A program made the position numbers and the translations under genes. The notes below the pieces were generated by a model that worked only from the letters and a program-made list of their open reading frames with translations, searched no databases and was not told where the DNA came from. This document shows, in pieces, positions 6,360-56,654 of a stretch of DNA of 64,000 bases. Within the stretch, counting starts at the first letter, position 1, and the number at the start of each line of letters is the position of its first letter. Source of the DNA: Blasia pusilla (taxonomy: Eukaryota); assembly GCA_050084515.1 (NCBI GenBank), contig CM114271.1, forward strand, positions 10,478,001 to 10,542,000, given 5' to 3'.

Positions 6360-8570
6360 ATATGCCTTCCTAGATCAAGTATTGAGTCATTACGGTGCAC
6401 TAGCTAAGGAGTTGACAAACCAGGGTACGGAGTTTCGCGGGGAGTTTTAGGCCTTGTGTGATCAGACGATGATCGACCACCGCACCACGTCACGAGATCA
6501 TCCCGAGGCGGATAGACTAGCAGAGAGGGTTGTGCAGACGGCGAAGAGAGGATTACGCAAGTATGGCTTGCAGAGAGGTCTCTTGGGAGATTGGGACCTC
6601 CAATTGCCGTGGTTGGCGATGAGATACAGATTCAGCAAGCAGACATCCTTAGCGTCTTTCTCACTCTACTTGCTACTTTATGGCCGAGAGTTAGATTCAC
6701 ATGCGGCCATTCGTCAAGATATTGGTGAGGTGTTGAACTGTGATGACCCTGATGCATGGATGCGAGCATGTTCTCAGAGGGTTAAGTTATTTTGGAGAGT
6801 CATGCCCATGGCGTTTGAGAACTTGGCGATTGCGCAACATGGGGATACGTTGAGGTATGCGACTATTTGGGGGAGGTGGTTATCGACCTACTATCTGGAG
6901 GTTTCATCAGGGAGACTATGTCTACTTGTAGCAGACGGCACCCATGACGTTGGATGTGACTGTAGGGCGCACTATCTTGAGAGTGCGTGAGATTTTGCCA
7001 TCCGATGTTTTCTTATATGAGGGACGCGATGGTATGGTTTGGAAGGACCATATGTGTAACTGTGCGCCATCTTATCTTTCGAACATTGACGGTACAATTG
7101 ATTCGAGAGGAGCGGTAAGAGGAGAGAGGAAGATATTGGCAACCCCTAGGGCCCTCTTGGTTTGAAGAGAGTTTCCAACATGTTGGAGAGAGGAAAGTTT
7201 TGACAAGTTGAAAAGGCAATTTTTTTCCAAAAATATTTGGCGGTGAAATTTTTTAAAATTTTTTTTTACCTGTTCAACCCGTTTGAATCCGACGAATTGC
7301 AATTTTTTGGTTTTTTCCTTCTGGTCAAGGAAAAAATTTCTTTTTTTGGGTTTTTTTAACGTTTGCAGTCCTTTAGACTCCAAACGTTAAAAAAACCCAA
7401 AAAATGAAAATTTTTCCCTTAACCAAAAAATAAAATTAAAAAATCCAAAGAATTGCAACCCATCACATGGTTGCACAAAAACGGACAAGTTCGGACATGG
7501 GTTACAAGAGGTGGGATCCACATTTATAGTCCATGATGGAAGGCAAGGCAAGGATGAGTGGAGCAATGAGGGAGGAGGGAGTGGAGGTGGAGGGAGGAAG
7601 AAACGAGGGAGTATGGAACACGAAGGCAAGTAAGGGGAAGGAGAAAGAAGGGAAAGGTGGGGCCCATATGAAAAAGTCCTTCCATAGGACGGACATAAGT
7701 CCACGGACATGGACATGTCCACGGACACGGACTTTGTCCACATCCAACCTTGACCCATCGGATTCCAACGGGTTGCACTAAGTTTGCTCTCTTCAAAAAA
7801 AATTTCCAAAAAAATTACTCACTTATTATCCATAATCTTCAAATTTTTTGGAGAGGGTTTCGGTTTTTTTTTCCTTTTGTGCCTTTTTTTTTAAGAGAGA
7901 CTCTCCTCTCTCCCTCTCTCCTGCCAAAATACCAGCCCCCGTTGATATGAGCTTAGCAGTAGTTCATGTAGGCTTGCGATGTATGCTGTGTGGTTTTGCC
8001 CGTGGTGCAACCACGATGCTAGTCTATGATGGATTTTTGAGAGGGTGGCATATGGCATGTCTGACCCCACCTCTCACTAGGGTTCCTCATGAACGATGAA
8101 TGTGTCCCAGATGTACATAGAGTAGGTAGTTCTAGATTCCGACTTGTGTGTGTGACAGGGATGACAAGAAGGTGACTAATGATGGGGCCATATGAGCACC
8201 CGACCTTCTTGCTCTTAGCGTCCGAGAGATGTATGTCATGGTAGGTAGGGATAGATGGCTATCTGGAGTTAGAGGGACCTAACCACCAGCTAGGGGGGCG
8301 ATTGGAGATACTTTGGTACTTCTTGTCTCGTTGTTTGGATGCCATGAGTTAGCATGGGAATGTGGGTGTTCATGTGTATGTTCGGTGACAGCGATGTATC
8401 TTGTGTAGCGATGTGTATGAGCACAATAGTTGTCACATCTTTTTGTTTGGATCCGCAAGATCAAGTAGAGTGCCTTCGGAGATACTGGAGGACAGCCTCA
8501 GGAGGTCAAGGATGACCTGCTGAGGTCACGGGTAACATGAGAGAGCAGGTTTCCCCTTCTCGATAATACC
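6360..8570 (+). mobile_element. 3' fragment of the DNMT/PHD Gypsy family (integrase core and C-terminus, degenerate PHD finger, PPT, repeat A', start of repeat B')
   Basis: ORF 6454-6990 (HRTTSRDHPEADRLAERVVQTAKRGL) is homologous to 13435-13947. PHD remnant CMLCG...WHMACL at ~7975-8118. PPT TAGGGGGGCGAT at 8291-8302. 8303-8428 matches the reverse complement of 37001-37126. Confidence 0.85.
7105..7940. mobile_element. Non-autonomous (MITE-like) DNA element inserted in the integrase C-terminus
   Basis: Interrupts the host frame NIDGTID|..SLAVVH. Degenerate flanking duplication ATTGATTCG(AG)/GTTGATATG(AG). The right end (...CTGCCAAAATACCAGCCCCC) is the reverse complement of the terminus at 56778. 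It contains AACCCGTTTGAATCCGACGAATTGC, a variant of the palindrome in that element. The left boundary is uncertain by a few bp. Confidence 0.75.
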
Positions 8571-12370: not shown

Positions 12371-12474
12371 TGTCGTGCAAATCCACATCGCCATACAACA
12401 TACATCGCTGACATACCATACTCACATACCTACATGACATAGATGAGAGCATCCACAAACACAAGTGTACCACA
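12371..12474 (-). repeat. Repeat A, outer copy (104 bp, TG...CA)
   Basis: Near-identical to 12847-12950. TGTGGTACAC...GCACGACA on the minus strand. Confidence 0.9.
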
Positions 12475-12476
12475 AT

Positions 12477-12844
12477 TGAAATCCGTGAAAGACCTACTGT
12501 CATAAAACACGTATAGAATCATATATAATCGAGCCAAACCCACTCCACGATGGGAAAATCCAGGTCAAAGCTTGCGGGAACCACCATAGCCAAGAGCTCT
12601 ACTCACTACCAAGGCTAATTCCCAACGCAACAGGCTCAACTCAAAGAACTAACTGTTCTTTGAGTGCACTCCACACTATATCCTCCAACCTAAGAGCGGG
12701 CCCTACTGGAAAAGTCACCCTCAACTGAGTAACCCCCAACCCTATGTATGAAACCGCATCTCTACTTAGACACTACAGTCCTACATAAGGTATGGCCTCT
12801 ACTAGCACACTATACTCTACGACATAATCTGTATGGTCATGACA
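12477..12844 (-). repeat. Repeat B, 3' copy (368 bp, TG...CA)
   Basis: About 20 mismatches by eye to 22994-23361. TGTCATGACC...GATTTCA on the minus strand. Confidence 0.92.
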
Positions 12845-12846
12845 AC

Positions 12847-12950
12847 TGTCGTGCGAATCCAAATCGTCATACAACATACATCGCTGACATACCATACTCA
12901 CATACCTACATAACATAGACGAGAGCATCCACAAACACAAGTGTACCACA
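12847..12950 (-). repeat. Repeat A, inner copy, immediately after the PPT
   Basis: Preceded on the minus strand by the purine tract TTAGGGGGGCGAGT (12951-12964). Confidence 0.9.
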
Positions 12951-13125
12951 ACTCGCCCCCCTAACTGGAGGTTAGGTCCCTCTAGGTCCCAAGTAGCCCT
13001 ATACATCTACTACATGCTACACACCTTCGTGGGTGTACGAATCAGAAGGCTGGGTGCTAGGTTGCCCCATTGTTAGTCGCACATCTGTAATCCATATCAT
13101 GCAAAGATCAAGTCATCTACCTCTC

Positions 13126-13270
13126 CTAAGTACATCGAGGACAAACCCACCTTCCAGTAGGAACAACATCCATACGTGGAGTCAAACACATCATGTGCCA
13201 ACCCCTAGAACACCGATCACACACCAACATACGGGCTGCGTTACCAGGAGACCCACACAACATGCACATC
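13126..13270 (-). CDS. PHD finger at the integrase C-terminus (part of the decayed pol)
   Basis: CMLCGSPGNAARMLVCDRCSRGWHMMCLTPRMDVVPTGRWVCPRC is a complete C4HC3 PHD pattern. Confidence 0.92.
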
Positions 13271-13957
13271 AAGCTAGCACGTATCAAGGCTAAGCTTGGG
13301 TCAACAGTACCATCCACATTTGGAAGATGATATGGCGCACAATTACGCACATGGTCCTTCCAAACAACTCCATCACGACCCTCCAACATGAGAACTCCAG
13401 AAGCTAACACCTTGCGCACTCGTAAAATAGTGCGTCATGCCGTCACATCCAACGTTTTCGGTGCAATGTGCTCCAAATAGACATAGTCCCCCACATGGAA
13501 CCTACAAATCGATGGTCGATAACCTCCACCCCGAATGGTTGCATACCGCAACGTATCCCTGTGTTGAGCAATGGCAAGATTCTCAAAGGCTGTTGGCATA
13601 ACTCTCCGAAAGAGCTCTGCCCGTTGAGAACACACTCTCATCCACATCTCTGGGTCATCAAGGTTCACCACCTCACTAGACTCCCAACGAATTGCTGCTG
13701 GCAAGTCTGGATCTTGGCCGTATAACAGAAAAGAAGGTGAGAAGGAAGCCAAGGATGCTTGGCGACTGAACCTATATCCCATGGCTAACCATGGCAACTG
13801 AATATCCCAGTCTCCAAGATGCCCCTTCTGTAGGCCATACTTGCGCAATGCCCTCTTCACCGTCTGAACCACACGCTCAGCCAAACCATCCGCCTCTGGA
13901 TGATCTTGAGACGTGGTCCTATGATCAATCAACGTCTTGTCACACAAGACCTCAAAC

Positions 13958-15097
13958 TGTAATGTATAAGAGTTTCTATTTTACAGTCGTTTTAATAAGT
14001 TCGATCCCCAAGAGGATCATTGTTTGATGAAAAGAGAGTTCGAAATTACAATTCTATTGTAATAGTTGTGTTAAAATGTATATGAGTTATATTCAATGTC
14101 TTATCAATATCTGCTGAACTTTCTTAGTACCAAAGGATCTTCTCTCGATTCACTCTAGTGGAATTGATAGCATGTTCAGGTAGATTTCCTCTCGATATCA
14201 AGAAACCTCACGAAGACCTCAACATGAAAGCTGGCTTCTCCTACTTTCGGAACTCAATCCGTCTCGGCAGGCTACACTCTGTCAAACAGATTTCCTACAA
14301 GTCATGTTGATTATTTCATTGATGAGAAAGGTTCGCCTGGTTCACTCTTCACTCTGCAGACCCAAAAAGAATACTCAGACATAAGCATTGCACATCAAAA
14401 TGAAGGAATGAGTGCTTTACTACTCCATCAAGAATGAGAAAGCTTCAAAGTGTTTTACAAGCTCGAGAGGGTACCACTCCCTTGCTCGGACCATTCCTGT
14501 AGCATAAGGACTTTGTAAGAGAATGATGATTATGGCTTCTGTCTTGCTTCTTAAATACTCGCTGGAGTAGAAGTGATCCAAAGATTCGAAGCGTTCTTGA
14601 TGAAGCTAGTGTCTCTTCACCATTTCTAACTACCTAGATCTATGGTTCTCTTAGCTTTTCCTACGATCCATGTGAATCCGCAGAACAAAATTGTCCTAAC
14701 TACCAATTTGATACAAAGGGTCGTGCCCCTTCCTAGTCTAACTGTTCTAATGTGCGTCGCTTGAAATCACAATCATTCTTAGCTTCGCTTCGCTGGTATG
14801 CTTCGTTATAGAGCAAAGCACTTCGTAGACAGAGCTTCGTTGAGCTTTGTTGAGCTTCGTTGACGTTCCGAAACTTCTTGCTGAGTCTTGAGACTTCGTT
14901 ATTGCATTTTCCTCTCCTCTAAGGCAAATCCTTGATCTTCCATCTCTCTGCCTTGTCCTAGGAGCTTTGTGATTCACTTTAATCTTACTCATTCCTCCTC
15001 ATAATAATAAATAATCATAATCATAATCATAATGTACAAGAGTCTTTGTTGAATAAAGAGATATATTCTTCAAAAGTACAAAATTTTGGGTATCACA
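13958..15097 (-). mobile_element. Solo LTR of the Athila-like family inserted in the integrase of DNMT-Gypsy copy 1
   Basis: Homologous to 5148-6359, with TG...CA ends. Flanks CAAAC/AAAAC are a 5-bp TSD with one mismatch. The host frame rejoins when it is removed. Confidence 0.88.
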
Positions 15098-15533
15098 AAA
15101 ACTCACCCTAAAACTGTGTACCTTGGTCGGTTAGCACTTCAGCTGGTGCACCAAAATGACTAAGCACTCTATCAAGAAACGCATACGCCGTTCCCTCACT
15201 TGCCTTGTCATCTAATGCCACCAACTCAACCCACTTGGAGAAGTGCTCCACCATCACCAACACATATCAATGATGTCGTACAATCAACGATAACGGTCCC
15301 GCAAAGTCCACACTCCAACGGTAACCCAACCCCATAATAGGCAAGGGGTGTAACTGTGGTGTAGGGGCATTGAATGATGCCCTCACCCGGTCACAAACCA
15401 TACAACGTGACACCAATTGCTGCACCTAAGTATGCATGCCACGCCACCAATACTGACCAAGCAGTAAGCTATATGTACGCTTTACCCCAAAATGTCCCAA
15501 CTCCTCATGGGCATGTCGCACAATGCGCTCTCT

Positions 15534-17390
15534 CTAAGCCAAATGCGGCACTACTTGTTGTCTACCATCCTCCCACATACGGAGAATACGTGTTCCCTCC
15601 AATCGATACCTCTTAGCACGTTGAAGAACACGGTCTCGCTCCTTGGCACTCACTATGCCTGGCACCCTACTGGTCCGTAGGAACTCCAACACCAACGCAT
15701 CATCATGAATATCATGCTGATCCGTACCACCATCTCCAACCTTAGGATCTGAAGGCTGGCCATCTATCCTCTGACTAGAGAAAGATGTCATGTGGTCCTC
15801 CATACTAGAGTCCACCCCTAACCAACATAAAAAGGCGAATGCATGCCAACCTGGCATTATCTCCTCATCAACCTCGCCATGCCATCTAGCCCCAGTTGCA
15901 TCCTCTTGGCTAGTACATGGGTTCCTACTCAACCCACCAGCATCAAGGTTGGCAACTCCAGGTCTATGTACCACTTGGAAGTCATACTCCTGTAAGATAA
16001 GAGCCCACCGTGCAAGCTTCCTTATAAGCTTGTCAGACTCCATCAACCACTTGAGCGGCTGGTGATTAGTAACAAGGGTAAACTCTTTGCCAAACAAGTA
16101 ACACCTAAAGTGTGCCATAGCCCACACTACTGCCAAGCACTCTCCCTCATATGAACTGTAGCGCGACTCCGCTGCATTATTCGAACGACTTGCATAGGCC
16201 ACCACAAACTCCATATGCTTATTATCATGTTGTGTCAACACCGCTCCAAGTCCCAACCTACTCCAATCAGTGTATAACTGAAATGGGTGCCCTCTGATAG
16301 GTCTCCTCAAGATAGGCGCCGCCACCAACTGGGCCTTGAGCTCCTCAAAAGCTCTCTCCTGATCATCTCCCCATTGCCACTCCTGATCTGATTTCAACAA
16401 TTGGTTCAAAGGCTTTGTCATAGTACTAAATCCCTTCACATACCTCTGATAGTAGTTCGCCAATCCCATGAATGCCCGAACTCTACTCACATCTACGGGA
16501 TGAGGAATAAGTGCAATAGCCTCCACCTTTGCTTGCTGAACTCCCAAACCACCTGGATAGATCACATGACCCAAGTACTCAACATCCTCATGGAAGAACT
16601 TACACTTTCCTGGATGCAAACGTAGACCATGAGCTTTCAACCGCTCAAACACAATCTGTAAATGTATCTAATGCTCCTCCACCGTGTTACTGAACACCAA
16701 GATATCATCAATGTAACATCGAACAAAATCCAACCCTGCTAGGATCCTGTCCATCACTCTCTGGAACTCCGCAAGTGCATTCTTCAACCCAAAGGGTAAG
16801 AATTTCCACTAGTACAAACAATCCTTGCCATGAGAGTTGACACCCCAAAATTTTGTCTTGGCCTTGTCACTCTCTCGAATTGGCAACTGATGATATCTTG
16901 CCCGATTATCCAAAGTACTGAAAATCTTTTCCTGTCCCACCACATCAAAGATCTCCTCAGGTGTAGGCATGGCATACCTATCAGCTTTGGTCTGCCGATT
17001 GATAGGACGGTAATCTCCACACAACAGCTCATCTGTGTAGTTGCCATGCACATCCTTTTTAGCAGGCATGACAATGGCTGATGCATACTCTCCATGCGAC
17101 AACTCCACTAATCCAGCCTCCAAAAGGTCCAACGTCCTACTCTGAATCATGTCCCTCTCCATATCACTATATCAGTAGGGACGACGGAAGATTGGCGTAT
17201 CACTAGCCAAATCAATCCGTATACTGGGTCCAACAAAAGCACCCAACTCCTTCATGCTAAAGGCAAAAAAAATCCTATCAGCACGTAGGAACTGTGTCAA
17301 GCGTCGTTTCTCACCTCCCGTAAGCTTGGGCCCAAGTAATTGCTCCCAAGTCTCCTCCATTGGCACACTAGAGAGAGAGGACGATGCCAT
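15534..17390 (-). pseudogene. RT and RNase H of DNMT-Gypsy copy 1
   Basis: CGDYRPIN, LPFGLKNA, YIDDILVFS (16690-16720), FQLYTDWS, SSYEGECLAVVW. Stops and frameshifts present. Confidence 0.92.
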
Positions 17391-17639
17391 TGGCTGCTAC
17401 GCAACCCCCTCACAAGATAGTACACCCTTAGTTACACCATTACCTGAACAAATAACTCCTCCACCAGCATGAGAAACCAACTCCACATGCCCAACCATTA
17501 CATCCCATTTACTCCAAGGATGCAAAATACTACTCTCCTCGCCCCCCGCCGATGCCTCTACCGTCCCGGTAGCCATTGAGCTCATCACAAGGGGTAGAAG
17601 ACACACAAACATAGTCCGAAATCGACTCTGCTCGGCCAT

Positions 17640-18600
17640 ACAAAGACTCAAAATCGAAGTCAAACAATTCAGGTCCATGGCCTGACCCAACACATGACGT
17701 CGTGAAGCCTCAGAAATGGAAGCAACCGCTATCACACCAGTAGCAAATCCCATCACACGCTCTCTCTCATCAGCGTTAGGCTCCACCAATTGTCGCACAT
17801 GAGAATCCCATACAAGCCCGAGACCACCTTCCCTGTAGGCATGTGACGAGGGAAAACTCATAAATGTGGGTAGTGCCATCCTAGGCTGGCCCACACGGTT
17901 CACCACTGCCATGGGTGACCGATCAATAACCCTCACCACCTGAGAAAGTCGCCCAATATCCAAGATACTATCCACTGTAAGGCAAGGATCCCGCCAGATC
18001 GCATCATATGCTCGACGTAGAACCTCCTAGGCAACAAGTTTGTCCACCATAAGCGTGGGCGATGTGCCTGTGATCAACTCGTTTGCATCCAACAACACCG
18101 CTGGTCCAATCCAAGACCGCACCTCATGAACACTCGCCATCATCCGGGTCCAAGTGTCATCCAACAATGGAACATTCTCCAGAATGTAAGCTCGAGCACG
18201 TGCCTGATGAACCTGAAGATGTCGTACCACCCGTAACATCTCCCAAAACAATCGAGACCTAGGGTCTTGTAATCCCTCACCATGACCAGCACGTGTATGA
18301 CCTTGACATGGCCATCCAGCAATCACCAAATCCACAAGACCAACCCTCTCAAGGTCCTGCGTCCCCAACAATGCAATGTGTGATGGCAAAGCACGCTGGT
18401 ACCCACGAATAGCTGATGGCGGCAACAACTCAGGATATCTCCGCATCAACTGACCAATATGCCGAGATGAGACTCTGTGTCCCGTCTCATCTCGCTCCAC
18501 ATACACGTATCTCCGCACAGGAATACCGGCCTGCAACACTGCAGCCAAACCAGTGCTAATCCCACCAAAGAGATCTAACACACAAATGCCCTCCGGCAGA
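17640..18600 (-). pseudogene. C5-cytosine DNA methyltransferase domain (DNMT3/DRM-like) within Gypsy pol, copy 1
   Basis: Motif I VLDLFGGI, motif II YVYVE, motif IV DLVIAGWPCQ, RSRLFWE, motif VI ILENV, motif VIII (frameshifted) RPRLWWTNL, motifs IX-X ERERVMGF...RRHVLGQAM. Confidence 0.92.
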
Positions 18601-21600
18601 TACTGCCATACAATGGGTTTAGTATCCAAAGGGGATAACCCAACTGGACCAGAAGTAGGAGTCCGCCTGGGGCCTCCTCTTCCTCGTGAGGTATAGTAGC
18701 CTCACACCAAGCCTCCTGCACTAGGCGATCAGCCTCCTGCACTAGGCGATCAGCCTCCTACCGTAGTGCACCACCTACACTCCAAAGTGGCACATCCAAC
18801 GATAAGGATGCCATTGCTGCAAAACTAGGGACCTCCTCTATCTCCTCATGCACAGAAGAATCCATAGGAGAAACATCACCCTCCAAAAAGTCTCATGGCC
18901 AAGTGACTACTCCACTAAAACCAGCCACAGATGCTAACACCGTTGGGGAAGACCCTCCTGGTCGAGCCCCACAAATAAATCTCACAGGAACTTGGCTCAT
19001 ATGTCCATCCCCTGTCTGCCAACCAGGTCTATAAGATGATGTCTCAGTCCAGTAATCCATCTCAAAACCCATTGAGTAAAATATTGCTCCTGCAACTAGT
19101 ACATCATACGACTCGGCTGATATGACCACTGGAGGTTCTCCCAACCGGGAGCTATCAGTCGCATGATCTGGTCTCAACTATACAGAGAACTTCTCCCGTG
19201 TCATGAATTGAGATCTATCATTGGCTCCTCCAAGTGATGTTTGAATCTGGAATGGGCAAGGCTCAAGCTCTGACCTCCAAATACTCAAACCAACACATGC
19301 CTCCTTTCCCAACATCAAAGGTTGGGCACCAAAGTCTAACAAGACTCTATCTGGTCTATACACTTGTCTTGTAGGACTCACCAATCAGAATATCCCATTC
19401 CAATTGTCCAACATACATACACCAGGTGTAAGCCTCTCACGATCAATGGCTGGCCGGGCTGGTAATGTATCCATCTTCGCCGCTGCTGCCTGCCAAGTAG
19501 CACTGGTACTCAATGCTACAATTGACATAGAGGGTCGCTCCACCGCAACACCCTCATCCATCTCAGCATGTGTAGCAATAACACCCCCACGTTCACACAA
19601 CGTGGCTGCTAGTTGAAATACAAGAGCTAAGTCAACTCCTAAAGCCATCAGCTCCGTGGTCGAAAAAAATGGGGATCCCAACACTGAAATTTCCATCCGC
19701 AATACTGCACTGGATGTTGCATCCGTGTCTACTACACACAATGTAGATGCCTTAGTCCCCACTGTCGGCTCAATAGGCTGCATAGGAACCATGGATGGAG
19801 TCCTAAGCACCTCAGACAACAAGAATGACTGGGGAAGCCTGGCCTGCCTCCCAGCCTCACCCCTCTGTGGGTCCAACTCCACAGTAGCACCACGTGGCTC
19901 TGACGCTCGAGTGGCTCCTCTCGTAACTATAGTTGATGCCTCAACCTGTGCTGCACTCGCCATATAAGAGAGATCATCCCCTCCATAAGAGGTGGAAGCC
20001 CCCTGCTCCCCAACGTGATCTATGCTGGATACCATCCATAATAGCCAACTTTTGCTCCAACTGCTCAATCCTGGCAGCCATAGCTGACTCTGTCGTAGTG
20101 GTAGGGGTAGCCACCGTAGGCTCTCCGACCACTAGTCCACCTCTACCACCCCTACCACCTCTACCACCTCTACCACCTCAGCCTCTCGGAGCTACTCCAC
20201 CACGGCCGCGGCCTGATCTCAACTCTGGATGAAGATCAAAGCAACGCTCTTGAGGATGACCTGGTCTCCCGCAATGATCACACTGAGTTGGGGCCGACTG
20301 AGGCCTATCCGTCTCCCATCCTCTTGGGGATAAAACTTCCTAACATGATCACCTCCACATATCCAACATGACTGTCCTTGCTGCGGGGCGGCAAATGAAG
20401 GCAATGGTCTCTACGCAAGTGTCCCTCTAGGACCTGACTGAGGTCGTGTGTACCCCCCACGACTCCCACTACTACTACGACCACCACTACTACGAGATTG
20501 TGAGGTGGGCTACTGAACACGAGAAGGAGTAGTTGTATCCCTACTAAATGCGGATGTCACCACTCTCTCCTTCACCATGTTAAGCTCAATCTTCTCAGAT
20601 AGAGCAAACACATGGGTCAATGTGGGTGAATCATCACTCATAAGAGTAGCATCACGTACCCTACGACGCAACTCTCTGTCCAAGATCCCATACCAAAACT
20701 GGACTGCTTGAACCTCAGTCACACCCTAGGTAACTGAAATCAAGCGTGGCATACAAGTGTATGCCTCACGAAGACTCTCACCAATCTTTCGCCCAAATTC
20801 TTGAAGACTCCTCAACTTCTCTGTCTTCACTCCCTGATAGTTCTTCTTCAACCTCTTGAAGAACTCTGCAACCGGGCTGAACGATGGTGGGGCACTAGTA
20901 CCTCCACTAGTACCCCCATTGGTACCTCCATGGGTACCTCCACTGGTACCCCCACTCTGGCTCGTACTCGTACCACTCAACGTTGGGTTGGCTGGCATAG
21001 TAGGAGCATTACTACCAATACCACCATGGGTGATAGACACATAGCTTGGAGACCAATATTGTCTCCACGCCTCAATCTCAACAACATGGTCCTTCCTAAA
21101 CTCATGGTAATAATCCATGGGTGGTCCCTCAATCTTTGAAACAACCCTTCCAAGCCAAGAAGGGTGTAAACAACGTATGCGTTCAACAACATGCATATCA
21201 CACCAGGTATCAAACTCCTGCATGAAGTACTCCAAGTCAATGGTGCCCACTGCACCCGAGTATCGTCGTGGGCCCTTCATGGCCCCATATATTCCGTCCA
21301 TGTCCCAAATCAATGGAGCTGCAACACTCGATAACAATGTAGAAGACTCGGTGTTTGGAACACCCTCGTCCTCCTCTTCATCAACCATCGGAAGTGGAAA
21401 AGGTAGCCAACACCTAAATCCACTCCGTGTGAAATCACTAGTGTCCACACCATGGTCCCCAACCAGACCACCTGACAGCTCCGTGATGACCAACGTTGAT
21501 GCCGCACCACCACTAAGTAACCAAGTGACGTCGATGTCACTGTAATATTCTAGCTCTACTAGCTGTGGGTGTAGGCAACCTAACCTGTCAACACCACAAG

Positions 21601-22981
21601 AAGCCTCCCACGGTCTACTGGTCATCACTCCAGCCTCACTACCGGTAGCATACAGGAGTAACACTACTCTGGAAATCAGCGTCAACCCTAACAATGGGCG
21701 CGTAAGCAAGAAACAACGATGGAGGGGATCCAAACAGAGGAAGTCCAACGACAACCCTCCAATCGCAAATGGAAATCAAGGTAACACAATCCACCAAACG
21801 TGGCACCCCTTGAATCCACAAAACCCACCACATAATTCTAACGCAATAGCTACTCCGCCGCAGGTCGATGACGTGCTAGTCGGACTCGCAGCACCTGAAA
21901 ATATCACCTGCATGGAGAGGCTACACTGTACTATGCGCTAGAAGTCCATCAACCAAAAACTTGAGATGCATAAAGCACCTAACATATCTCCAAACAACAC
22001 CAAATGAGCTACACTAGTGTGTATACTGGCATAGTTAAGAACTCAGCAGTTAAGAGTCTTCCAGGCAGAATAGCCCAAAGATGGGTGACCAGTTATGCAA
22101 CACTCAAATCACAATTCCTACAAAAATTCCTCACACCCAAGCAAGCAAGCTTGCTTGCTTGCTCCTTGCTCCTTACTCCGCCTCTCGCGCCTACTCGCCC
22201 CGAGCTACCACGAGTTGCCTCGAAGCCTTAAAACGCCAAGAAATGCCCCTATCGCCGCGTTCGCCACGCTTCGCCATGCTCCGCTATGGAGAGAGGCCCA
22301 ACCAGGGCGCCCCTAATGGGATAGGCGTCTCCAACAACGAACCAGTCACCAACCAACGAGCCCCTCCGATCTGCTGTCCACCATAGTAATTACTAGTCCG
22401 TGAAATTTCGATCAGCAATTACTCCACAAATCCTCAACCAAAATTGAATTTGTTTCAACCAGAATTCAATTGACCACCATAGCTATCTCTCCACAAAAAA
22501 TCAGCTACAACTGAGCTCCATACTCCGAGCTACAAATCAGACAAACTTGCTGTCCATACACCTCCAGAATCGCAAATCCGAGAACGCTTCCGCACAGATT
22601 CATGCACGCAGAAATCCGCAACGCTCCACACACTCAAGAATATAGCTTCACATGAGATCACAATACAAGTAGCAACAGGAACCTCTCACCCGATCTGGAT
22701 GAACTTCAACACAACTTCTGCACTCCAAGCTCTCCACATCAGAAAACCGTTGAACACGGACCAAAATCTTCAATCCTTGATAACTTCCAACTCCCTTGAC
22801 AAACTCTGGCGATCTAAAGCGCGTTGGAAAGCTCTCAGCAAGGCGTCTCTTTCCCAACCAACCACGCATCAGATTCCCACCTCCAAAATAGGCCACAAGC
22901 CATGAACATCCACGGCTGAGTACACAATCAGCCCTAACCAGATCCTAGTGATCCACAATCGAAGCTACCCTCGATCTACTC

Positions 22982-22994
22982 TAGTTCTTTGAGT
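22982..22994 (-). promoter_or_regulatory. Putative self-priming PBS (ACTCAAAGAACTA)
   Basis: Abuts repeat B, does not begin with a tRNA-type TGG, and is a 13/13 reverse complement of 12639-12651 in repeat B, ~30 nt downstream of a TATA-like motif. Confidence 0.7.
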
Positions 22995-23361
22995 GAAATC
23001 CGTGAAAGACCTACTGTCATGAAACACGTATAGAATCACATACAATTGAGCCAAACCCACTCCACGATGGGAGAATCCAGGTCGAAGCTTGCGGGATCCA
23101 CCATAGCCAAGAGCTCTACTCACTACCAAGGCTCACTCCCAACGCAACAGGCTCAACTCAAAGGACTAATTGTTCTTTGAGTGCAATCCACACTATATCC
23201 TCCAACCTAAGAGCGGGCTCTACTGGAAAAGTCACCCTCAACTGAGTAACCCCCAATCCTATGTATGAAACCGCATCTCTACCTAGACACTACGGCCCTA
23301 CATAAGGTATGGCCTCTACTAGCACAATATACTCTACGACATAATCCGGATGGTCATGACA
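22994..23361 (-). repeat. Repeat B, 5' copy
   Basis: Direct repeat of 12477-12844, not accompanied by repeat A. Confidence 0.92.
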
Positions 23362-24746: not shown

Positions 24747-28916
<4,170 letters not shown>

Positions 28917-36500: not shown

Positions 36501-37000
36501 CTCTTTGGATTTGGACAATTCTTTGCGCAGTGTTTGGCTTCCCCACAATTATAACAAAAATTCCTCTTAATTGGTGGGATGAATGCTGCGGGCCCCATGA
36601 TATGACGTAGAGGCCTCTATTCTCCATACTCGGACGGTGCGTATCTAGGAATCCAACTACGAGGAGTACTAGCCCCGGGAACTTCCTGAACCGCGTAGCA
36701 TCCTTCCCACTGATCTGGCTCATACCATCCCTCATCCCTTGAGGGTTCTTCTTGCATCCAACGTAAATTTGGTTGAAGCGGACACTCTGGCATTGTATGC
36801 CCATGAGTTCCACAAGCGCTGCGCCAAGTGTACCTTTAGTTCGGCCATTTACTTTGTCAACTCATTGATGTCGGACTTCTCCCCATCCTTCTTAGTCTTA
36901 CGGGGGTGACTCACAGACTTGCCACTCTCTATCTTCGCGCTCGCGTCCTTATGCCCCGAACATTGTCTTGGGTGTCTTGATTTCTTCTTCTTCTTGCCCT
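30595..37000 (-). mobile_element. Athila-like Ty3/Gypsy copy C (gag 36453-37000; RT end, RH and INT 31865-33860; probable 3' LTR remnant left of the PPT at ~31810), disrupted by Copia and a deletion
   Basis: CYNCGEAKHCAKNC and CGNCKKGGH knuckles. ORFs 32807-33334, 32445-32627, 32124-32348 and 31865-32140 match copy B. Purine tract AAGGGAGGGGG at 31811-31821 on the minus strand. LTR limits are uncertain. Confidence 0.75.
33862..36452 (-). mobile_element. Truncated Ty1/Copia element (LTR remnant, gag, PR, INT; RT and RH missing)
   Basis: KLDGSNYTLWKFKMR, CFYCGKLGHLIKDC, WVLNSGASRHMT, WHERFGHL, IHADLCG, MGYSDEAKAYRLW, RRSKR. Starts TGTTGG at 36452 and is fused directly to Gypsy RT at ~33862. 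Confidence 0.9.
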
Positions 37001-40000
37001 TGTTATGCGCATACACATCGCTACACAACATACATCGCTGTCACCAAACACACACACAAACACGCACAATCCCAAGCTAACTCATGGCATCTAAACAACG
37101 AGACAAGAAGTACCAAAATATCTCCATTAAAATAAGATCCAATCTCTCTCACAACACCATAGTTCTCAAATGTGTGCACTCTCACACGTCTCTCTTAATG
37201 TCAAACCAAACCCACTCTCCTAATGAGAGGCTTGCGTTACACACACAAGGCAAGCAAGACCATAGCTCCACCGCCTCATGCCAAGAAGTTGAACAAAGAG
37301 AGAATGAGCTCTCAAGCTCACTCTCATTGAGGTATACCCCTCCCCTCTCCCAAGCTCTCTATACCATCACGTCCCTCCAATAAGAGAATACCATATGGCA
37401 AAATCTCACGCACTCTCAAGATGGTGCATCCTACAATCATATCCAAGATTGTGGGTGCCGTCTACTGCAAGTAGACATAGTCTCCCTGATAAAACCTCCA
37501 GATAGTAGGTCGATAACCACCTCCCCAAATAGTCGCAAACCTCAATGTATCCCGATGTTGCGCAATCGCCAAGTTCTCAAACGCCATGGGCATTACTCTC
37601 TAAAAAAACTCAGCCCTCTGAGCACATGCTTGCATCCATACATCAAGGTCTTCAAGGTTCAACATCTTACCAATATCTCGATGAATGGCCGTAGGTAAAT
37701 CTGGCTCTCGGCCATATAAAAGTAAGTATGGTGAGAAAGACGCTAAGGATGCCTGCCTGCTGAATCTGTACCCCATCGCCAACCACGGCGACTGGAGGTC
37801 CCAATCTCCTAGGTGACCTCTCTGCAAGCTATACTTGCGTAATCCTCTCTTCATTGTCTGCACAACCCGCTCCACTAGTCCATCTGCCTCTGGATGATCT
37901 CGCAAAGTAGTGGGGTGGTCGATCAATGCCTGATCACACAAGGCTTGAACTCCCCGCGGAACTCTGTACCTTGGTTTGTCAACACCTGAGCTGGTGCGCC
38001 ATAATGACTCAACACTCGATCTAGGAAGGCATAAGCTACTCCCTCACTCACTTTGTCAGGCAAGGAAACCAACTCTATCCACTTTGAGGAGTGTTCAACC
38101 ATCACCAACACATAACGACTATGGCGCTGGGTCAAAGGCAAAGGTCCTGCAAAATCCAAACTCCATCTATAACCTAAACCCATGATCGGAAGTGGATGCA
38201 ACTATGGATTCAGAGCATTGAACGATGCTCGGACTCAACCACACACCATGCATCTGGCAAGAAACTTCTGAACGTCAGTCTGCATGCCTGACCACCAATA
38301 CTGAACGTGGAGCAAGTTGTACGTTTGTTTCACTCCAAAATGACCCAAATCCTCATGGGCATGACACACCAAACGTGCTCTCTACAAAGGATGAGGCACT
38401 ACACGCACTCTACCATCCTCCCACACTCACAACACATATGTCCCCTCCCACTGAAACCGTTTGGCTCGCTGTAGGATCCGATCCCGCTCTCTAACATCCA
38501 CTGTGCTCGCGACACTGCTAGTACGTAGGTACTCCAAGATCACTCCATCGTCGTGAATGTCTCAGTCACATGTCGTCTCCTTACGGGCCTCTGGATCTAA
38601 GGACTCTCCATCAGACCTTGCCATAGAAGTCTCAGCAATCTGGCTCTCCATAACCAACAAGCCCAAATAGGCTGATGCATGCCATCTTGGCACCAACTCC
38701 CCATCACTCTCACCAAGCCAACGAGCTCCTCTTGCATCTCGCTGACTCGTGCATGGGTTACGGCTCAAACCATCTGCATCTTGGTTGAGCATCCCAGGTC
38801 TATGCACCACCTAGAAGTCATACTCCTGCAATAAAAGAGCTCACCTTGCAAGCTTCCCTATAAGGTTGTCGGACTCCATCAACCACTTAAGTGGCTGATA
38901 ATCAGTAATGATGGTAAAGGGATTACTGAATAGATAACATCTGAAATGTGTGATAGCCCATACTGCAGCCAAGCACTCATCCTCATACGAGCTTTACTTC
39001 GCCTCTATAGCGTTGTTCGAGCGACTAGCATAAGCCACCACAAACTTTCTATCATCATCGTCATGTTGGATGAGCACGGCTCCAAGCCCCAACATGCTCG
39101 AATCGGTATGCAACTCAAAAAGATGCCCCCTGATCGGTCTCCTCAATATGGGCACGGATGTCAATCTGTCCTTAAGCATCTGAAATGCTCTCTCCTGCTC
39201 ATCCCCCGCGGTGCCACTCCTGATCCACCTTGGTCAGCAAGGTCAGTGGCTTTGCAATCGAGCTAAAACCCTTGACGTACCGTCAATAGAAGTTTGCCAA
39301 TCCCATGAATGCACAAATTCGACTCACATTTATAGGGCGTGGAATGCGTGAAATAGCCTCTACCTTCATCTGCTGCACACCAAGGCCCCCTGGGTGTATC
39401 ATATGACCAAAGTACTCAATCTAGTCATAGAAGAACTTGCACTTGCCTGGATGTAGCTTCAGCCCATGTAATTGCAATTGTCGAAACACCTCCTCTAGAT
39501 GTCACTCATGCTCCTCAACCGTGGCGCTAAAGACTACGATGTCATCAATATAACACCTAGCAAAATCCAGACCTGCCAAGATCCTATCCATAACCCTCTG
39601 AAATTCAACCGGGCCTTGTTTAACCCAAATGGTAAGAATCCTTCTCGGAAGGATTGATATCCCGAAATGTCATCTTTTGCGTGTCCTCCAATCTAATAGG
39701 CAGCTGATGGTACTCGGCTCGAAGATCTAATGAACTGAAGACCTTTGCATGCCCAATAGCATCAAAGATCTCCTCAGGAGTGGGCATGGCATACTTATCA
39801 GACTTTGTCTGTCGATTGATAGGTCGGTAATCTCCACACATCTGCCTATCCGTCCACTTGCCATGCACATCCTTCTTGGCAGACATGACAGTGGTAGATG
39901 CATACTCTCCATGCGACATCTCCACTAGTCCAGCGCCAACCAAGTCCTGGCTCCTACACTGAATCAGAGCCCTCTCCATGTCAATGTACTTGTAGGGTCG

Positions 40001-40529
40001 TTGGAAGATTGGCGTGTCACTCGACAACTCAATGCGGATCCATGGACCCTTTAGTGTATCCAAATCCTGCATACTAAATGCAAAACAACTCCTATAACTC
40101 CTAAGGAACTGATGTATTTGGCGCCGCTCTCTTTTTGTCAACTTAGGACCCATGTGTGGCTTCCAAGTCTCCATCGTGACTACGGTAGGACTCTCCAGCT
40201 CGGCTACCGATGGTTGCTATGGTGCAACCCCGTCTCGGACAACAAAACTTGACCACTCCTGTGCAGCCAACTACAAAATCGGATCTCCATTTGCAGTACT
40301 TGGCACCACACTCGATGTTGCGGGTACCATCTCTTGACGTACATTCAAAAAATCCCAAGAAGTCCAAGGGCGTCTCTCCCGATCACCCCTGGTGTAGCGA
40401 TCTCATTGGGTCTCGCTCCCGGCCACTGTCTCAACTGTCTTGCTAGGCATGGGGCTCACCAACGCAACTTTTGTGATCTATCGCATCCTTAAACGACGTT
40501 GCTCAACTACTCCTAAGTTGAAAATCCAT

Positions 40530-41460
40530 GTCAAGCAATTCAGGTCAATTGCTTGACCCATGATGTCATGATACCTTTGATAGTGATAGTACTGTCGTCA
40601 CTCTTGTGGGGAATCCCATCGCTCGCTCTCGCTCATCGGCATTGGGCTCCACCAAGCTCGTACCTGGTCATCCCAAACCAAGCCAGGTCTGGCCTCCTTG
40701 AATGCATAGGAAGCAAGAAAACTCACCAATGTGGGAAAGGTTGCTCGTGGCATGCCAATCGTGTTGACCACAATCAACGGCCGTCGATCATTGTGTCTCA
40801 CTGCTTGTGATCGACGGCCTGGATCCAATATAGAATCCACCAACCAATCGGAGGGAGGCTCCACTCTCGCATAAGCCCTCCGCAACACCTCATGTGGTAT
40901 CAAGTTGGTCCACCAAAGATGCGGGCGGTATGCTCTAGAACCTACACTCACCGCATCTAACAACAGTGCCAGGCTGATCCATGTGCGCACCTGATGTGCA
41001 CTCGTCACCATGCGGGACCTCGAATCACCCAAAATCGGCACATTCTCCAAAGTGTATGCTGGAGAACGAGGCTGATGCGCCTGTAAATGTTGCAAGATTT
41101 GCATCATCTCCCAAAACAACCTGGACCGAGTTTCAGCCAACCCGCTACCTTGTCCAACACTCGATAGGCCCTGACACGGCCAACCATAAATGACCAAGTC
41201 GATGGTCCCTACCCGCTCCAAGTCATGCGCCCCCAACAATGAAATGTCCCTCGGTAGGGAACTCTGGTAACCGTGAATGGCGGACACAGACAACAAGTTG
41301 GGAAAATAGAGGCGTAACTGCACCACATGGTGAAGTGAAGCGTGCCTTGCAACATCATCAATCTCCACATACAGGTATTGTTGCATGCGCACTCCAGCGT
41401 GCAACCCAATAGCTAACCCAATGTTGATCCCTCCAAAGAGATCCAACACCCGGATACCCT
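40530..41460 (-). pseudogene. C5-cytosine DNA methyltransferase domain within Gypsy pol, copy 2
   Basis: IRVLDLFGGI, YLYVEID, DLVIYGWPCQGLS, RSRLFWE, LENVP, RAYRPHLWWTNL in ORF 40598-41587. Confidence 0.92.
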
Positions 41461-42744
41461 CCTCTGGGATGCACCACACAATTGGGGTGTTGTCCAAAGG
41501 GGTCATAGCAGCACTCCTGCCTACTTGGGGTTCCTCTGACCCATCACACTCTAGTGCAAACGGTCTCGCTCCACGCGGCCTGCACATGCTCAGTGGCTAA
41601 GCGTCGAAGCTCTTCAGTCGGGCCTCAAAACGGCACCTCTCCTCCACGGACTGATGCGACTACCATGACACTCCTCTCCATAGAAATATCAAGAATGGGA
41701 CTATCCTCTGCATGGACGTGTCCCTCAATCAAATCACTAGGCCAAGTGATGGCACTGCTAAATGTTGCTAAGGTCGCCATCTCTCCTGGCTGTCGTTCTA
41801 TCACTACACCTGTGAATCGAACGGGTAATGAGCTAAGGCGCCCATCACTTGACTGCCATCCTGGTATGTAGGACATCGACTCCTCCCAATAATCCACAGA
41901 AAACCCCATCAGGTATAACACTGCTCTACCAACCAAGACATTGTAGGACTCTACATTAGTCACTATCGCCTTGGCTTGCACCATGGACTCATCTATAGGA
42001 TGTTCCGGGAAAATCCTCACCACGACCTCATGTCGGGTGATATACTGTGTGGTACTCGCTCCACCGGATACAGACATCCAGTATATGGAGCGTTGTCCAT
42101 TCCGGATACAGACATCCAAGGATGTCGTGCGCCGACTCTCCTTGAACGTTAATCTTGTTTGTTGCGGAAGCGTGCGTTCAGTAGGTCACGCTCTCAACGC
42201 TGATCTGCATCCAAACACGCACTTTGGTTAGCCGGGACTTGGATTCCAACCCGAAATTCACTTCGTGCAAGTCTTGGTGAGGAACTCATTGGATGTTCAT
42301 CGGACAGTTGGAACCGCTAGGCGCGAAACGCCGTTTTAGGTTCCTGAACCGACCAGAAAGTCTGTCCCAAGTCTTTCGAGACTTGCCCGTGTTGGAAACC
42401 GCGAAACTAGGAAGGTTGAGCTTGAAGAGAGAGTCCGAGATGGGAACTCGGAAAGTAATCCCGCTGATTGATCCAAGTCCTGGCTAACCAAAGTGCGTGT
42501 TTGGATGCAGATCGGCGTTGAGAGCGTGACCTACTGAACGCACGCTTCCGCAACAAACAAGATTAACGTTCAAGGAGAGTAGGCGCACGACACGTGGTAT
42601 CAGAGCAATTCCTTGATGAGCGTGAACTTGGGGTCGTTGAAGATTTGGACGTTTGGGGAGAACTCAAGGTAACCGGAAGACCGCGACACCGAGGAGGAAC
42701 GCAAGAGGCGAGGAGGAGATCTGAGAAAAGGCGACGACTCGCAA

Positions 42745-45700: not shown

Positions 45701-47266
45701 TAATCCACAAGCCGGGGAAAGAAAATGTCATTCCAGATGCGTTAAGTCGCAGGGATGAACACATGCCATCGACGACACAAGTGTTGAGAGCAATGTTCCC
45801 TAATGAAACAGACCTGGAAAGAAGGATTCGTGAAGGATACATGAAGGATGAGCAAGCGAGGGAGTACCTTGGGAAGTTAAAGCGGGGCAAGAAGGTGGCC
45901 AATCTGAGTTTGAGACACGGCTTGCTAAAGTTTAAGCAGAGAAGGATCTATGTAGGCCAAGACAAGCTACGGACCAAGGTGTTTGTGGAATGTCATGATG
46001 GACCTTTGGCGGGATACAAAGTGGAGAAATCCACTCTTGCTGTTTTGTCTAAGAGGTTCTTCTGGCCCAACATGAAGGAAGATGTTGCTCAATATGTGAA
46101 AACATGCGTGACTGCCGCCAAAGCGAACGCGTGTCTTATGCGAAGAAACAAGGTTTACTTCATCCTTTGCCAATCCCGGAGGGACCCTTGCAAAGCATTA
46201 GCATGGATTTCATTACGAGTCTTCCAGAATCTGAGGGATACAACGCTATACTTGTGATAGGTGATCGGTTTAGCAAGTTGGGGAGGTTTGTGCCGACGAG
46301 ATAGTCTGCGACGGCCTATACGACTTCCCGACTATTCCTGGATGGTTGGTGGCATGCGCACGGATTGCCTAGAAGCATTGTGTCCGATCGGGATCTGAAG
46401 TTTACCAGTGCCTTTTGGAAACATCTATTCAGGAGGTTCCGGACCAAACTCAGCTTTAGTACGTCCTTCCATCCTCAAACGGATGGGCAAACGGAAAAAG
46501 TAAACTCGGTCGTAAACCAATACTTACGGAATTACGTGAGTGCGGACCAAAGAGATTGGGCCAAGTGGTTAAGTATGGCTGAGTATTGTTACAACTCGAC
46601 TAAGCATTCTGCAATCGGAGAATCTCCGTTTCTTCTGGCGTATCAAAGAGAACCAAAAGGGCCTCTTGACTTAGCTCTTTCGAAGGGCAATACATCGACA
46701 CACACTCGTCAAGCGGAATGTTTGTTAGTGGAAATGCAGGAACGACAAGAGCGAGCGAGAGAAAGTCTCGCCAAGGCTCAACTAAGGTACGTAAAGCATG
46801 CTAACAAAAGTCCGCGCCAAGTGAGTTTCCAAGTTGGGGAACAAGTGTGGTTGAGTGTTAAGAATCTCACTCTTCCAAAGGAATTGTCCGCGAAATTGTC
46901 AGCCAAGTATGCTAGACCGTATGTGATCAAGGCAAAGCCGTTTGAGGATGTATACACGTTGGAGCTGCCAAACGAGTTCAAGATTCACCCGACTTTCCAT
47001 GTGTCATTATTGAAGAAGTATCTTCAAGACATGCGTCATGATGAAGGAGGATGTTGAGACCACAACCGGTTATCAGAAATGAGGAACCAGAGTTCAAGGT
47101 TGAGACTATTCTGCGTTCCAGACGTAGGGCCACCAAGTACGAGTACTTGGTCAAGTGGAAAGGCTATCATGTGAAAGAGGCGACTTGGATTGCGGAGGCG
47201 GATCTAGAACATGCGCAAGAAGCATTGCGTGACTTCAGATGGATGCAAGAAAGGCACGTGCGTTAG
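42745..47266 (+). pseudogene. Chromovirus gag-pol (gag, CCHC, PR, RT, RH, INT, chromodomain) with a few stops and frameshifts
   Basis: CYNCGEPGHMAKEC, LLIDTGASHSF, MPFGLCNAP, YIDDILIYS, HTDASDFA, SISMDFIT, SDRD, PQTDGQTE, EYLVKWKGY...ATW. Confidence 0.95.
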
Positions 47267-49471: not shown

Positions 49472-49644
<173 letters not shown>

Positions 49645-49733
49645 GAAATCCACTCTCATTGGGAAAGTAACAAGCCAAAACATCCGCTATTTCAGTATGA
49701 CTAAACTCCTCTAAGGTGACAAACCTCTCATCT

Positions 49734-49882
<149 letters not shown>

Positions 49883-56200: not shown

Positions 56201-56639
56201 GTTTGTTGCATAGCGTGCATAGCTTCACAATCTACGATATATTAAAAAATATTTGAATAAAAAATTCCTGTAAAAACTGACGGGGACTGTTGTAAAGCCC
56301 AATGTCTCTTTCTCCTACACAAAATTTGGCAGCGCTTCCGCGCTGATTTCTCCCAACAAAAATATATAACATGTGAGAACACAAATCAGCAAGCTACATG
56401 ATGCTCTTGAGAGCACCAACATGAAGCAATGCGCCCCCATACTAAATTCCTATAAAAAATTGGGCAGCGCTACCGCTTGCCACTCTCCCGTACAAAAAAT
56501 TAACAAAGCAAAACAGCAAATTTGCACGGCTCTTGCTCCGGTGAGCACTCCCATAAGCCATGAAGTGGGGAACATGGTCCCCCAACCTGCACCAAACAAT
56601 GAGCAACCAGCGAGCTCCCTCATGAAGCTCTCTCACTCA

Positions 56640-56654
56640 CTCATTCTCTCTCTG
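56640..56654 (-). promoter_or_regulatory. Putative self-priming PBS of copy 2 (CAGAGAGAGAATGAG)
   Basis: 14/15 reverse complement of 37294-37308 in repeat B'', which begins ~28 nt downstream of a TATA-like motif on the minus strand. Confidence 0.65.

Follow-up and report, generated by a model that had tools for sequence, protein, structure and literature searches.

How does a long terminal repeat (LTR) retrotransposon that encodes a DDE integrase come to carry split direct repeats, the arrangement known from DIRS, Ngaro and PAT elements? The question is raised by a degenerate Ty3/Gypsy element, here called copy 1, in a 64,000-nt stretch of the genome of Blasia pusilla (assembly GCA_050084515.1, contig CM114271.1, positions 10,478,001 to 10,542,000 of the forward strand). 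This whole stretch is referred to as the window, and all coordinates below are counted from its first nucleotide. On the minus strand, from 23361 to 12371, copy 1 reads B(368)-internal-polypurine tract (PPT)-gt-A(104)-gt-B-at-A. The answer that we favor, with confidence only a little above even, is that it is a degenerate, presumably self-priming bryophyte Ty3/Gypsy element whose cDNA termini would be joined to each other and whose integrase would open a palindrome inside the repeat.

The repeat units of copy 1 and their junctions, from the 5′ end to the 3′ end of the element, are as follows.

22994..23361, minus strand: B2, the 5′ terminal repeat, 368 nt, TGTCATG...GATTTCA (TGTCATGACC...CGGATTTCA)
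12953..12966, minus strand: PPT, ..TTAGGGGGGCGA / ..ttaggggggcga (aggggggcga = 12962-12953), followed by gt and then A2
12847..12950, minus strand: A2, the internal A copy, 104 nt, TGTGG...CGACA (TGTGGTAC...GCACGACA)
12838..12853, minus strand: A/B junction palindrome CGACA-gt-TGTCATG (consensus of relatives, GACA-GC-TGTC), the putative integrase site
12477..12844, minus strand: B1, the 3′ B copy, within which RNA coverage drops
12371..12474, minus strand: A1, the terminal A copy and 3′ end of the element, linked to B1 by "at"

B2 contains a TATA-like box and a primer arm, and the internal sequence ctcaaagaac (ctcaaagaactagag...) abuts it directly. No A lies upstream of B2, where the sequence is flank (..cgaagtcct), and A1 is followed by the unrelated flank aaggtgacc. 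In BLAST alignments, B2 and B1 were 94.6% identical over 368 nt, and A2 and A1 95.2% identical over 105 nt. These coordinates and identities bear out the B...A-B-A layout proposed in the initial annotation of this DNA, as well as its likeness to Ngaro/PAT elements, since the order X-internal-Y-X-Y was found in copy 1 and in its complete relatives of the same form. Two identical LTRs at the two ends were not found: the 5′ end is B alone and the 3′ end is A-B-A in copy 1 and in the related loci L003, L018, and L041.

Two further copies in the window, which belong to a second subfamily, carry the same kinds of junction.

6361..8439, plus strand: copy 2 (subfamily 2), 3′ part only, with the C-terminal part of the integrase, PPT 8292-8301, t, A′ 8303-8428, gt, and TGTCACATC
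36997..56777, minus strand: copy 3 (subfamily 2), 3′ end B″...TTTTA(37128)-a-A″(37126-37001), then flank agggcaag

The recurrence of the pattern that the initial annotation had pointed out at 8291-8440 and 37001-37360 is thus real: copy 2 shows PPT-A′-gt and the start of a B (TGTCACATC begins at 8431 and is broken soon after), and copy 3 shows B″-a-A″, with a B/A spacer of 1 nt versus 2 nt in copy 1. Its statement that every unit is bounded by TG...CA is correct for all repeat units of copy 1 but not for subfamily 2, in which B″ ends in TTTTA rather than CA. The 5′ ends of the other copies, described there as not visible, can be reached in one case: the 5′ B″ of copy 3 lies at 56777-56655, itself truncated on its 5′ side, and the internal sequence follows directly with no A between. 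Copy 3 is split by nested insertions (~42074-50599 and 50949-53402) and also carries a deletion in its internal part; the insertion at 42074-50599 holds another Gypsy reverse transcriptase (RT) on the plus strand (44518-45750). The junction types PPT/A, A/B, B/A, and B/internal are therefore common to two window subfamilies with different A and B sequences.

Relatives outside the window were collected as metagenome contigs matched by alignment of the C-terminal part of the integrase. This gave 50 loci with 62-86% amino-acid identity, whose proteins cluster with Sphagnum proteins; nine pairs have common flanks, leaving 41 distinct loci. With the A, B, PPT, and post-B segments of L018 as references, matches were obtained in 37 of the 50, and the remaining 13 had too little downstream sequence or were too diverged. 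The relatives fall into two forms. Form i (B-internal-PPT-A-B-A) was recognized by (A-)B-A or A-B 3′ ends at 13 distinct loci. Form iii, in which B-internal-PPT-A is followed by flank, was also found at 13 distinct loci; this second form, about as common as the first, was unforeseen in the earlier interpretation.

Form i, complete: L003, L018, L041
Form i, partial: L039/40 (terminal A truncated); L038 and L034 (contig ends within the 3′ B)
Form i, 3′ ends: L007/11, L013, L015, L022, L026, L046, L017/28
Form iii, complete: L010, L025, L044(/29), L045
Form iii, 3′ ends: L004, L006, L012/14, L016, L021, L023, L024/27, L030/31, L042

We scored the termini of these loci, in place of those of host-genome copies, for B-internal-A-B-A against AB-internal-AB. 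Neither A nor B-A preceded the 5′ B at any of the nine distinct 5′ starts visible, and a canonical A+B 5′ LTR was never seen at an element edge, so that the prevalence of two identical A+B LTRs, which the initial annotation had named as the finding that would overturn its reading, did not emerge. The A-pair and B-pair identities were 93.9 and 90.8% in L003, 93.8 and 92.1% in L018, 92.2 and 89.5% in L041, and 95.2 and 94.6% in window copy 1. Because the two pairs have diverged by similar amounts within each copy, both duplications date from insertion. We conclude that the B...A-B-A layout is a trait of the family and no accident of tandem insertion or recombination.

The flanks of the seven complete relatives were then compared at the outer ends of the element.

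L003: flanks CATA / CATA, perfect 4-bp target site duplication (TSD)
L018: flanks AAGG / AAGG, perfect 4-bp TSD
L010: flanks TACA / TACA, perfect 4-bp TSD
L025: flanks TGTG / TGTG, perfect 4-bp TSD
L044: flanks TACA / TACA, perfect 4-bp TSD
L041: flanks AACA / AATA, 3 of 4 positions matching
L045: flanks GGTA / AGTA, 3 of 4 positions matching

A perfect 4-bp TSD in five of seven copies (chance of at least 5/7, 2e-11) borders exactly the TG of the B start and the CA of the A end, and the outer termini are TG..CA in all copies. TSDs at these positions indicate that integration is of the integrase type, and neither homologous nor of the tyrosine-recombinase (DIRS) type. Integration of a circle in the DIRS/Ngaro manner, by a tyrosine recombinase acting in trans or by host recombination, would suit the formally Ngaro/PAT-like order (A1-int-B1-A2-B2) and the lack of a TSD at copy 1, but we regard it as highly improbable. 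The element encodes an rve-type HHCC/DDE integrase, as the initial annotation had it, and a Pfam search of the three read-through sense frames and eight antisense open reading frames (ORFs) of at least 100 aa yielded no tyrosine recombinase (PF00589, Phage_integrase) at E<=0.01; TG..CA termini and 4-bp TSDs would also be unexpected of an insertion made by such an enzyme. The same data bear on the idea that these began as ordinary elements with A+B LTRs and were reshaped once inserted, whether through tandem insertion, unequal recombination, or a 5′ deletion. The missing TSD and unrelated flanks of copy 1 would agree with this, but the same breakpoints occur in independent insertions of two or more subfamilies, A is absent from all nine 5′ ends, and the TSDs of five of the seven complete relatives lie exactly at the B start and A end; later rearrangement is accordingly very hard to credit.

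The junction between A and B provides a source for both ends. It has the form CA-NN-TG, with a 2-nt spacer in 14 of the 15 visible junctions (the exception is L034); six junctions have gc as the spacer, three have ac, two have at, and those of the window copies and of L035 have gt. The consensus GACA-GC-TGTC is palindromic, and in L018 the palindrome is perfect over 16 bp (CATGACAGCTGTCATG). The palindrome is kept even where A and B no longer align, namely in L035 and in window subfamily 2. The left integrated end corresponds to the right half of the palindrome (TGTCATG...) and the right integrated end to its left half (...CGACA), and together they form a good terminal inverted repeat. The ends defined by reverse transcription form a poor one, with TGTGG, TGGAG, or TGAGA at the A start and TTTCA or TTTTA at the B end. 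The integrated termini are thus the halves of a palindrome inside the LTR and not the LTR ends, and their origin there accounts for genomic copies that begin at B and finish at A with 4-bp TSDs. These results suggest that the integrase cuts at the palindrome within the repeat.

The extent of the LTR at the level of reverse transcription was deduced from the PPT, the primer-binding site (PBS), and RNA. The PPT always adjoins gt-A (about 30 junctions in related loci). RNA was taken from raw runs X22 and X23 of the same species label, and its reads lie on the strand of the element. Only 19/4261 and 17/4163 reads were at least 99% alike, and the RNA therefore comes from other copies. Depth fell from 103/167 (bin 12625-12999) to 13.8/21.9 (bin 12250-12624), a roughly 7-fold drop inside the 3′ B. 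Taken together with the PPT and PBS, this drop defines the LTR as gt-A + NN + B, in which U3 would consist of A and the first half of B, and R/U5 would lie in the second half of B.

Two kinds of unusual joint were seen in the same RNA. Reads joining 23328 to 23040, which go back 289 nt (B position 322 to 34), numbered 3+8 (X22, X23) and had no clean GT-AG; they could reflect a partial tandem duplication of B in an expressed copy or a template switch. Reads joining 13598 to 15752 (16+29 in X22 and X23) skip 2153 nt, with 9 other letters between, and come from an expressed copy in which a deletion has removed most of the integrase.

The candidate priming elements of copy 1 are the following.

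22980..22993, minus strand: PBS-like sequence CTCAAAGAACTAGA, directly after B2, complementary to a segment of B and a candidate for self-priming
12640..12652, minus strand: primer arm TTAGTTCTTTGAG in B1, B positions 193-205, 176 nt before the B end

The equivalent of the arm in B2 (23157-23169) has one mutation. No tRNA-type PBS (TGG...) follows B; the sequence directly after the 5′ B is CTCAAAGAACT, which is conserved between the window and loci with different surroundings. In copy 1 the PBS and arm are complementary over a 13-nt run, reached by 0 of 1000 shuffles. The 14 nt after the 5′ B pair over 11-14 nt with a segment 171-188 nt before the B end in six of nine copies (window copies 1 and 3, L018, L038, L045, and L035), and at most 11 of 1000 shuffles reached the observed run. 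Three unrelated arm/PBS pairs were found, GTTCTTTGAG/CTCAAAGAAC, ATTCTCTCTTTG/CAGAGAGAGAAT, and ACATTCTTGTCAAG/CTTGACAAGAATGT, the groups being window copy 1 with L018/L038/L045, window copy 3, and L035; since all three are complementary, the pairing covaries. The arm is preceded, at a distance of ~30 nt, by a TATA-like box, and RNA folds pair the arm with the PBS. Transcription is predicted to start at the GTTCTTTGAG arm, and the poly(A) site is predicted to lie farther downstream in the 3′ B. Judged by its sequence, the element is a candidate for self-priming from a PBS complementary to its own U5 region, an architecture of the Tf1/sushi type.

If the LTR ends where reverse transcription places them, the joint between the 3′ B and the terminal A brings the two ends of a cDNA together. 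In 8 of 11 distinct copies this B/A joint consists of the U5 end (..TTTTCA), GT or AT, and TGTGG, and the GT is the same GT that is found after the PPT. The first position of the dinucleotide is G or A and differs within the orthologous pair L017/L028, which points to mutation. In the other three copies the tail of the PPT, (C)GA, stands before the GT.

L046: joint TTTTC-GAGT-TGTGG
L013: joint TTTTC-GAAT-TGTGG
L015: joint with a 21-nt filler ending in CCGAGT

The terminal A thus resembles a left cDNA end, primed at the PPT, that became attached to the right end of its own molecule, and the PPT tails may record imperfect primer removal in some copies. Because RNA coverage indicates that the transcript stops within the 3′ B, a new joint would be expected to form at each insertion.

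We propose the following series of steps. The complete cDNA would be A-B-internal-A-B, and its termini would join each other (U5 end ..TTTCA plus GT-A). This joining could precede integration, giving a 2-LTR-circle junction, or follow it, through host end joining. Integrase would cut the upstream LTR's palindrome in a staggered manner, behind each CA, yielding two 3′-processed ends in a single step: two CA-3′OH ends, each with a 2-nt 5′ overhang, as in the normal product of 3′ processing. Insertion of both palindrome halves would then give B-internal-A-B-A and a 4-bp TSD. In a linear-first variant, an intasome would form at the upstream palindrome and integrate its two halves, and the termini would be joined later; this order fits as well as circle-first. 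The B-internal-A form could arise from use of both palindromes, from a 1-LTR circle, or by later deletion between the A copies (A x A). The initial annotation had suggested that a linear cDNA circularizes and integrates through the internal CA-gt-TG site. The palindromic site and the sequence of joined ends support that proposal, whereas the circle itself was not shown and B-A-B-internal-A was seen at none of nine 5′ ends.

The joint could also be produced by RT without any ligation or circle. Plus-strand synthesis would complete U5, switch end-to-end onto the U3 start, and copy A, and the left A would be lost by long-range 3′ processing at the palindrome. Such permutation of the cDNA accounts for B-internal-A-B-A without any B-A-B-internal-A (0/9 5′ ends) and for a B/A joint that is mostly precise (8/11). 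On the other hand, no sequence feature would stop synthesis exactly at the A end, and the PPT remnants and 21-nt filler at 3/11 joints resemble end joining of badly trimmed ends. We know of no obligatory third RT jump of this kind, and consider this route unlikely, though the most serious competitor of joined cDNA ends.

The abundance of form iii raises a different possibility, that the primary product is B-internal-A, a linear cDNA cut at both palindromes, and that B-internal-A-B-A is a minor by-product or comes from a separate route. Thirteen distinct loci end in PPT-A and then flank, and four complete B-internal-A copies have TSDs (three perfect and one at 3/4). The two forms also do not separate in a tree built from the 3′ kilobase, with 8 changes versus a shuffled mean of 8.7. 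However, the RNA of a B-internal-A copy would lack the 3′ R or U3b, B would not be regenerated, and the family could not persist through such copies alone; A x A deletion in form i could, moreover, also yield B-internal-A. Form iii lies on longer branches (median 0.08 vs 0.05), a difference that is not significant (p=0.15). Two of the 13 loci may be truncations: L016:2750 and L004:883 are near-identical to the form-i copies L013 and L038 until 3-4 nt past the A end, and these breaks right at the palindrome may reflect truncation, rearrangement, or assembly. Collapse of the A-B-A loop in a de Bruijn graph is an unlikely source of B-internal-A contigs for copies in which the A pairs differ by 6-8%. 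On balance, a primary B-internal-A product appears improbable.

Several observations weigh against joined cDNA termini opened at an internal palindrome. A 2-LTR circle has two identical palindromes, so B-A-B-internal-A would be expected as often as B-internal-A-B-A, and yet it was found at 0/9 5′ ends versus five of form i. This deficit could be explained if B-A-B is quickly reduced when its two B copies recombine, if the upstream LTR is kinetically favored in the linear-first pathway, or by an unspecified mechanism at the level of RT. Copy 1, as first annotated, lacks a TSD, with TCCT before B2 and AAGG after A1; given the 4-bp TSDs of its relatives (five of seven perfect), this lack is peculiar to copy 1. 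Three of nine copies have no primer/PBS complementarity, L003 and L044 through mutations and L010 through deletion of the arm. In run X22, 21 RNA fragments end at 12683 (B1 position 162), at the TATA-like box; this pile lies upstream of the predicted transcription start and misfits a simple U3-R-U5 reading, and its interpretation as a poly(A) site was not accepted. L035, a more distant relative (68% amino-acid identity), has PPT-tt-A*(104)-gt-B*(362) at 8540-9040, followed by the PBS instead of A*, and may be a wrap-around contig, a tandem, or a 1-LTR-circle-like arrangement. No solo B-A units, which would calibrate recombination rates, were seen among the related loci. The related copies are all old and degenerate and come from metagenome assemblies in which repeats can be mis-joined, and all that we say of the intermediate is deduced from integrated copies. 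With these points counted, joined termini and an opened palindrome remain the reading we prefer. A stronger claim, to which we give somewhat less than even credence, is that this is the first natural retroelement whose integrase acts obligatorily on an internal palindrome, with productive insertion requiring joined cDNA termini and the junction kept inside the copy.

The coding sequence of copy 1, assessed in three sense frames and with Pfam, has the domain order gag-protease-Dnmt3-like C5 methyltransferase-RT-RNase H-HHCC/DDE integrase-PHD finger. The Ty3/Gypsy pol order of protease, RT, RNase H, and integrase is present, with RVT_1, RT_RNaseH, RT_RNaseH_2, Integrase_H2C2, and rve in sequence.

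20726..21775, minus strand: gag ORF remnant, similar to the Sphagnum protein P0042
19385..20131, minus strand: protease-region ORF remnant, in which VDTDAT replaces D-T/S-G
18027..18701, minus strand: C5 cytosine methyltransferase domain (PF00145) with FGG, PCQ, and ENV motifs, between protease and RT
15534..17171, minus strand: RT (YIDD) and RNase H, with one stop and a frame change (frames, Pfam)
15112..15562, minus strand: N-terminal part of the integrase, with the HHCC zinc finger and two Asp of the DDE core (PF17921, PF00665)
13435..13980, minus strand: C-terminal part of the integrase, carrying the Glu of DDE (DHPEADGLAER)
13126..13434, minus strand: PHD finger (PF00628) at the C-terminus of pol
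13954..15098, minus strand: foreign insertion, not part of the element, 1145 bp, TG...CA, solo-LTR-like, with AGTTT (5 nt) on both sides, splitting the integrase core

Zinc-knuckle remnants lie downstream of the gag ORF in other frames. With its many stops and frame changes, copy 1 is a dead, degenerate element. The empty site of the 1145-bp insertion is present in 28+32 RNA reads and one DNA contig, which represent other copies. A 77-90% similar copy of this insertion lies in the opposite orientation at 5148-6360, adjoining the copy 2 integrase; the two insertion points are ~90 bp apart in the integrase coding sequence, so that the same solo-LTR-like family has entered the same gene region twice. 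The closest proteins of the element are found in Marchantia and Sphagnum. Proteins of Marchantia polymorpha, Sphagnum, and Calypogeia match the methyltransferase ORF at 70-78% identity, and a Marchantia protein matches the C-terminal part of the integrase at 87%. Relatives occur in Marchantia, Sphagnum, Calypogeia, and Closterium. In the distant relative P0048 (38% identity in the methyltransferase), the methyltransferase stands after RNase H, not before RT.

Copy 1 is bordered on its 5′ side by a satellite-like array (23362-24444; period ~489 bp), and a long 8-bp microsatellite lies beyond it (24682-25037). This satellite flank may be related to the missing TSD. Elsewhere in the window, two ~80% alike copies of a different Gypsy family lie on the minus strand at 8569-10870 and 31957-33862, with 30-40% amino-acid identity to the element studied here.

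If our reading is correct, these elements carry within their own sequence, and pass on, the circle-junction route of integration that has been a matter of long debate for retroviruses. Bryophyte and charophyte elements would then provide a natural LTR-retrotransposon integrase that makes a restriction-like cut in a palindrome rather than trimming cDNA ends, and whether end-joined (2-LTR-type) cDNA can serve as an integration precursor could be put to the test in Marchantia, a tractable plant. Programs that search for LTR elements on the assumption of two identical LTRs will overlook or wrongly annotate families of this kind. Half of the copies, those of the B-internal-A form, are without any terminal repeat. 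Through its methyltransferase and PHD finger, the element also connects transposon integration with host chromatin.

With DIRS, Ngaro, and PAT elements the family shares the split direct repeats X-internal-Y-X-Y, but it differs from them in its DDE integrase, TG..CA ends, and 4-bp TSDs in the relatives, and in that no tyrosine recombinase was found in copy 1. In the circle junctions of IS3 and IS30, abutted inverted ends form a reactive transposase substrate; these are DNA transposons that work without reverse transcription, and the likeness is one of analogy only. A closer parallel is the palindromic LTR-LTR junction of retroviral 2-LTR circles, which the PFV and HIV-1 integrases are reported to cut (PMC1180852, PMC1905944). 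That junction likewise has a palindromic CA..TG site, the cleavage of which is in our case suggested by sequence. In retroviruses the palindrome is made by joining LTR ends, as a side route, whereas here it is built into the LTR; and unlike in the retroviral circle, the joined cDNA ends (B/A) remain inside the integrated copy.

The putative PBS, complementary to the 5′ region of the element's own RNA and not to a tRNA, resembles that of Tf1/sushi and plant Tcn1 elements; the self-priming Ty3/Gypsy clade Tcn1 has been reported in mosses (Neumann et al., 2019, PMC6317226). Compared with Tf1, sushi, and Tcn1, a PHD finger replaces the chromodomain, a methyltransferase is added, and the repeats are split. 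Troyka, which the initial annotation had listed as a split-repeat group, is instead defined by CG..CG termini and 3-bp TSDs in Gypsy-related elements of animals (Kojima, 2025, PMC12440569). It resembles the present family as a Gypsy-related LTR retroelement with unusual termini, and differs from its TG..CA termini and 4-bp TSDs.

The nearest known system is KnitGypsy-Dnmt3 of the charophyte Klebsormidium nitens, a Gypsy element with Dnmt3 in pol and repeats arranged in a DIRS-like manner, according to the legend of Fig. 4c in de Mendoza (2018; PMC5890265). The name was not found in any other paper of the literature searched, and literature listings on split direct repeats, integrase, and LTR retrotransposons revealed no other apparent DDE element with split repeats. 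Literature searches that combined Gypsy retrotransposons and DNA methyltransferases with Marchantia, together with Klebsormidium or the PHD finger, likewise yielded no relevant paper. Both elements have a Dnmt3-like C5 methyltransferase inside a Gypsy pol and the DIRS-like repeat arrangement; they differ in that ours has a bryophyte host and its best matches in Marchantia and Sphagnum, the two being compared by description only. A Gypsy element with DIRS-like repeats is thus already in print for a charophyte, and the bare observation is not new. The main text of that paper, as available, contains nothing on TSDs, a palindrome, a PBS, circles, mechanism, or bryophytes. Within the literature searched, what appears to be new is the existence of bryophyte members, their 4-bp TSDs, and an internal palindrome that supplies both ends, together with the PPT footprints at the B/A joint, the putative self-priming PBS, and the repeat-less B-internal-A form.

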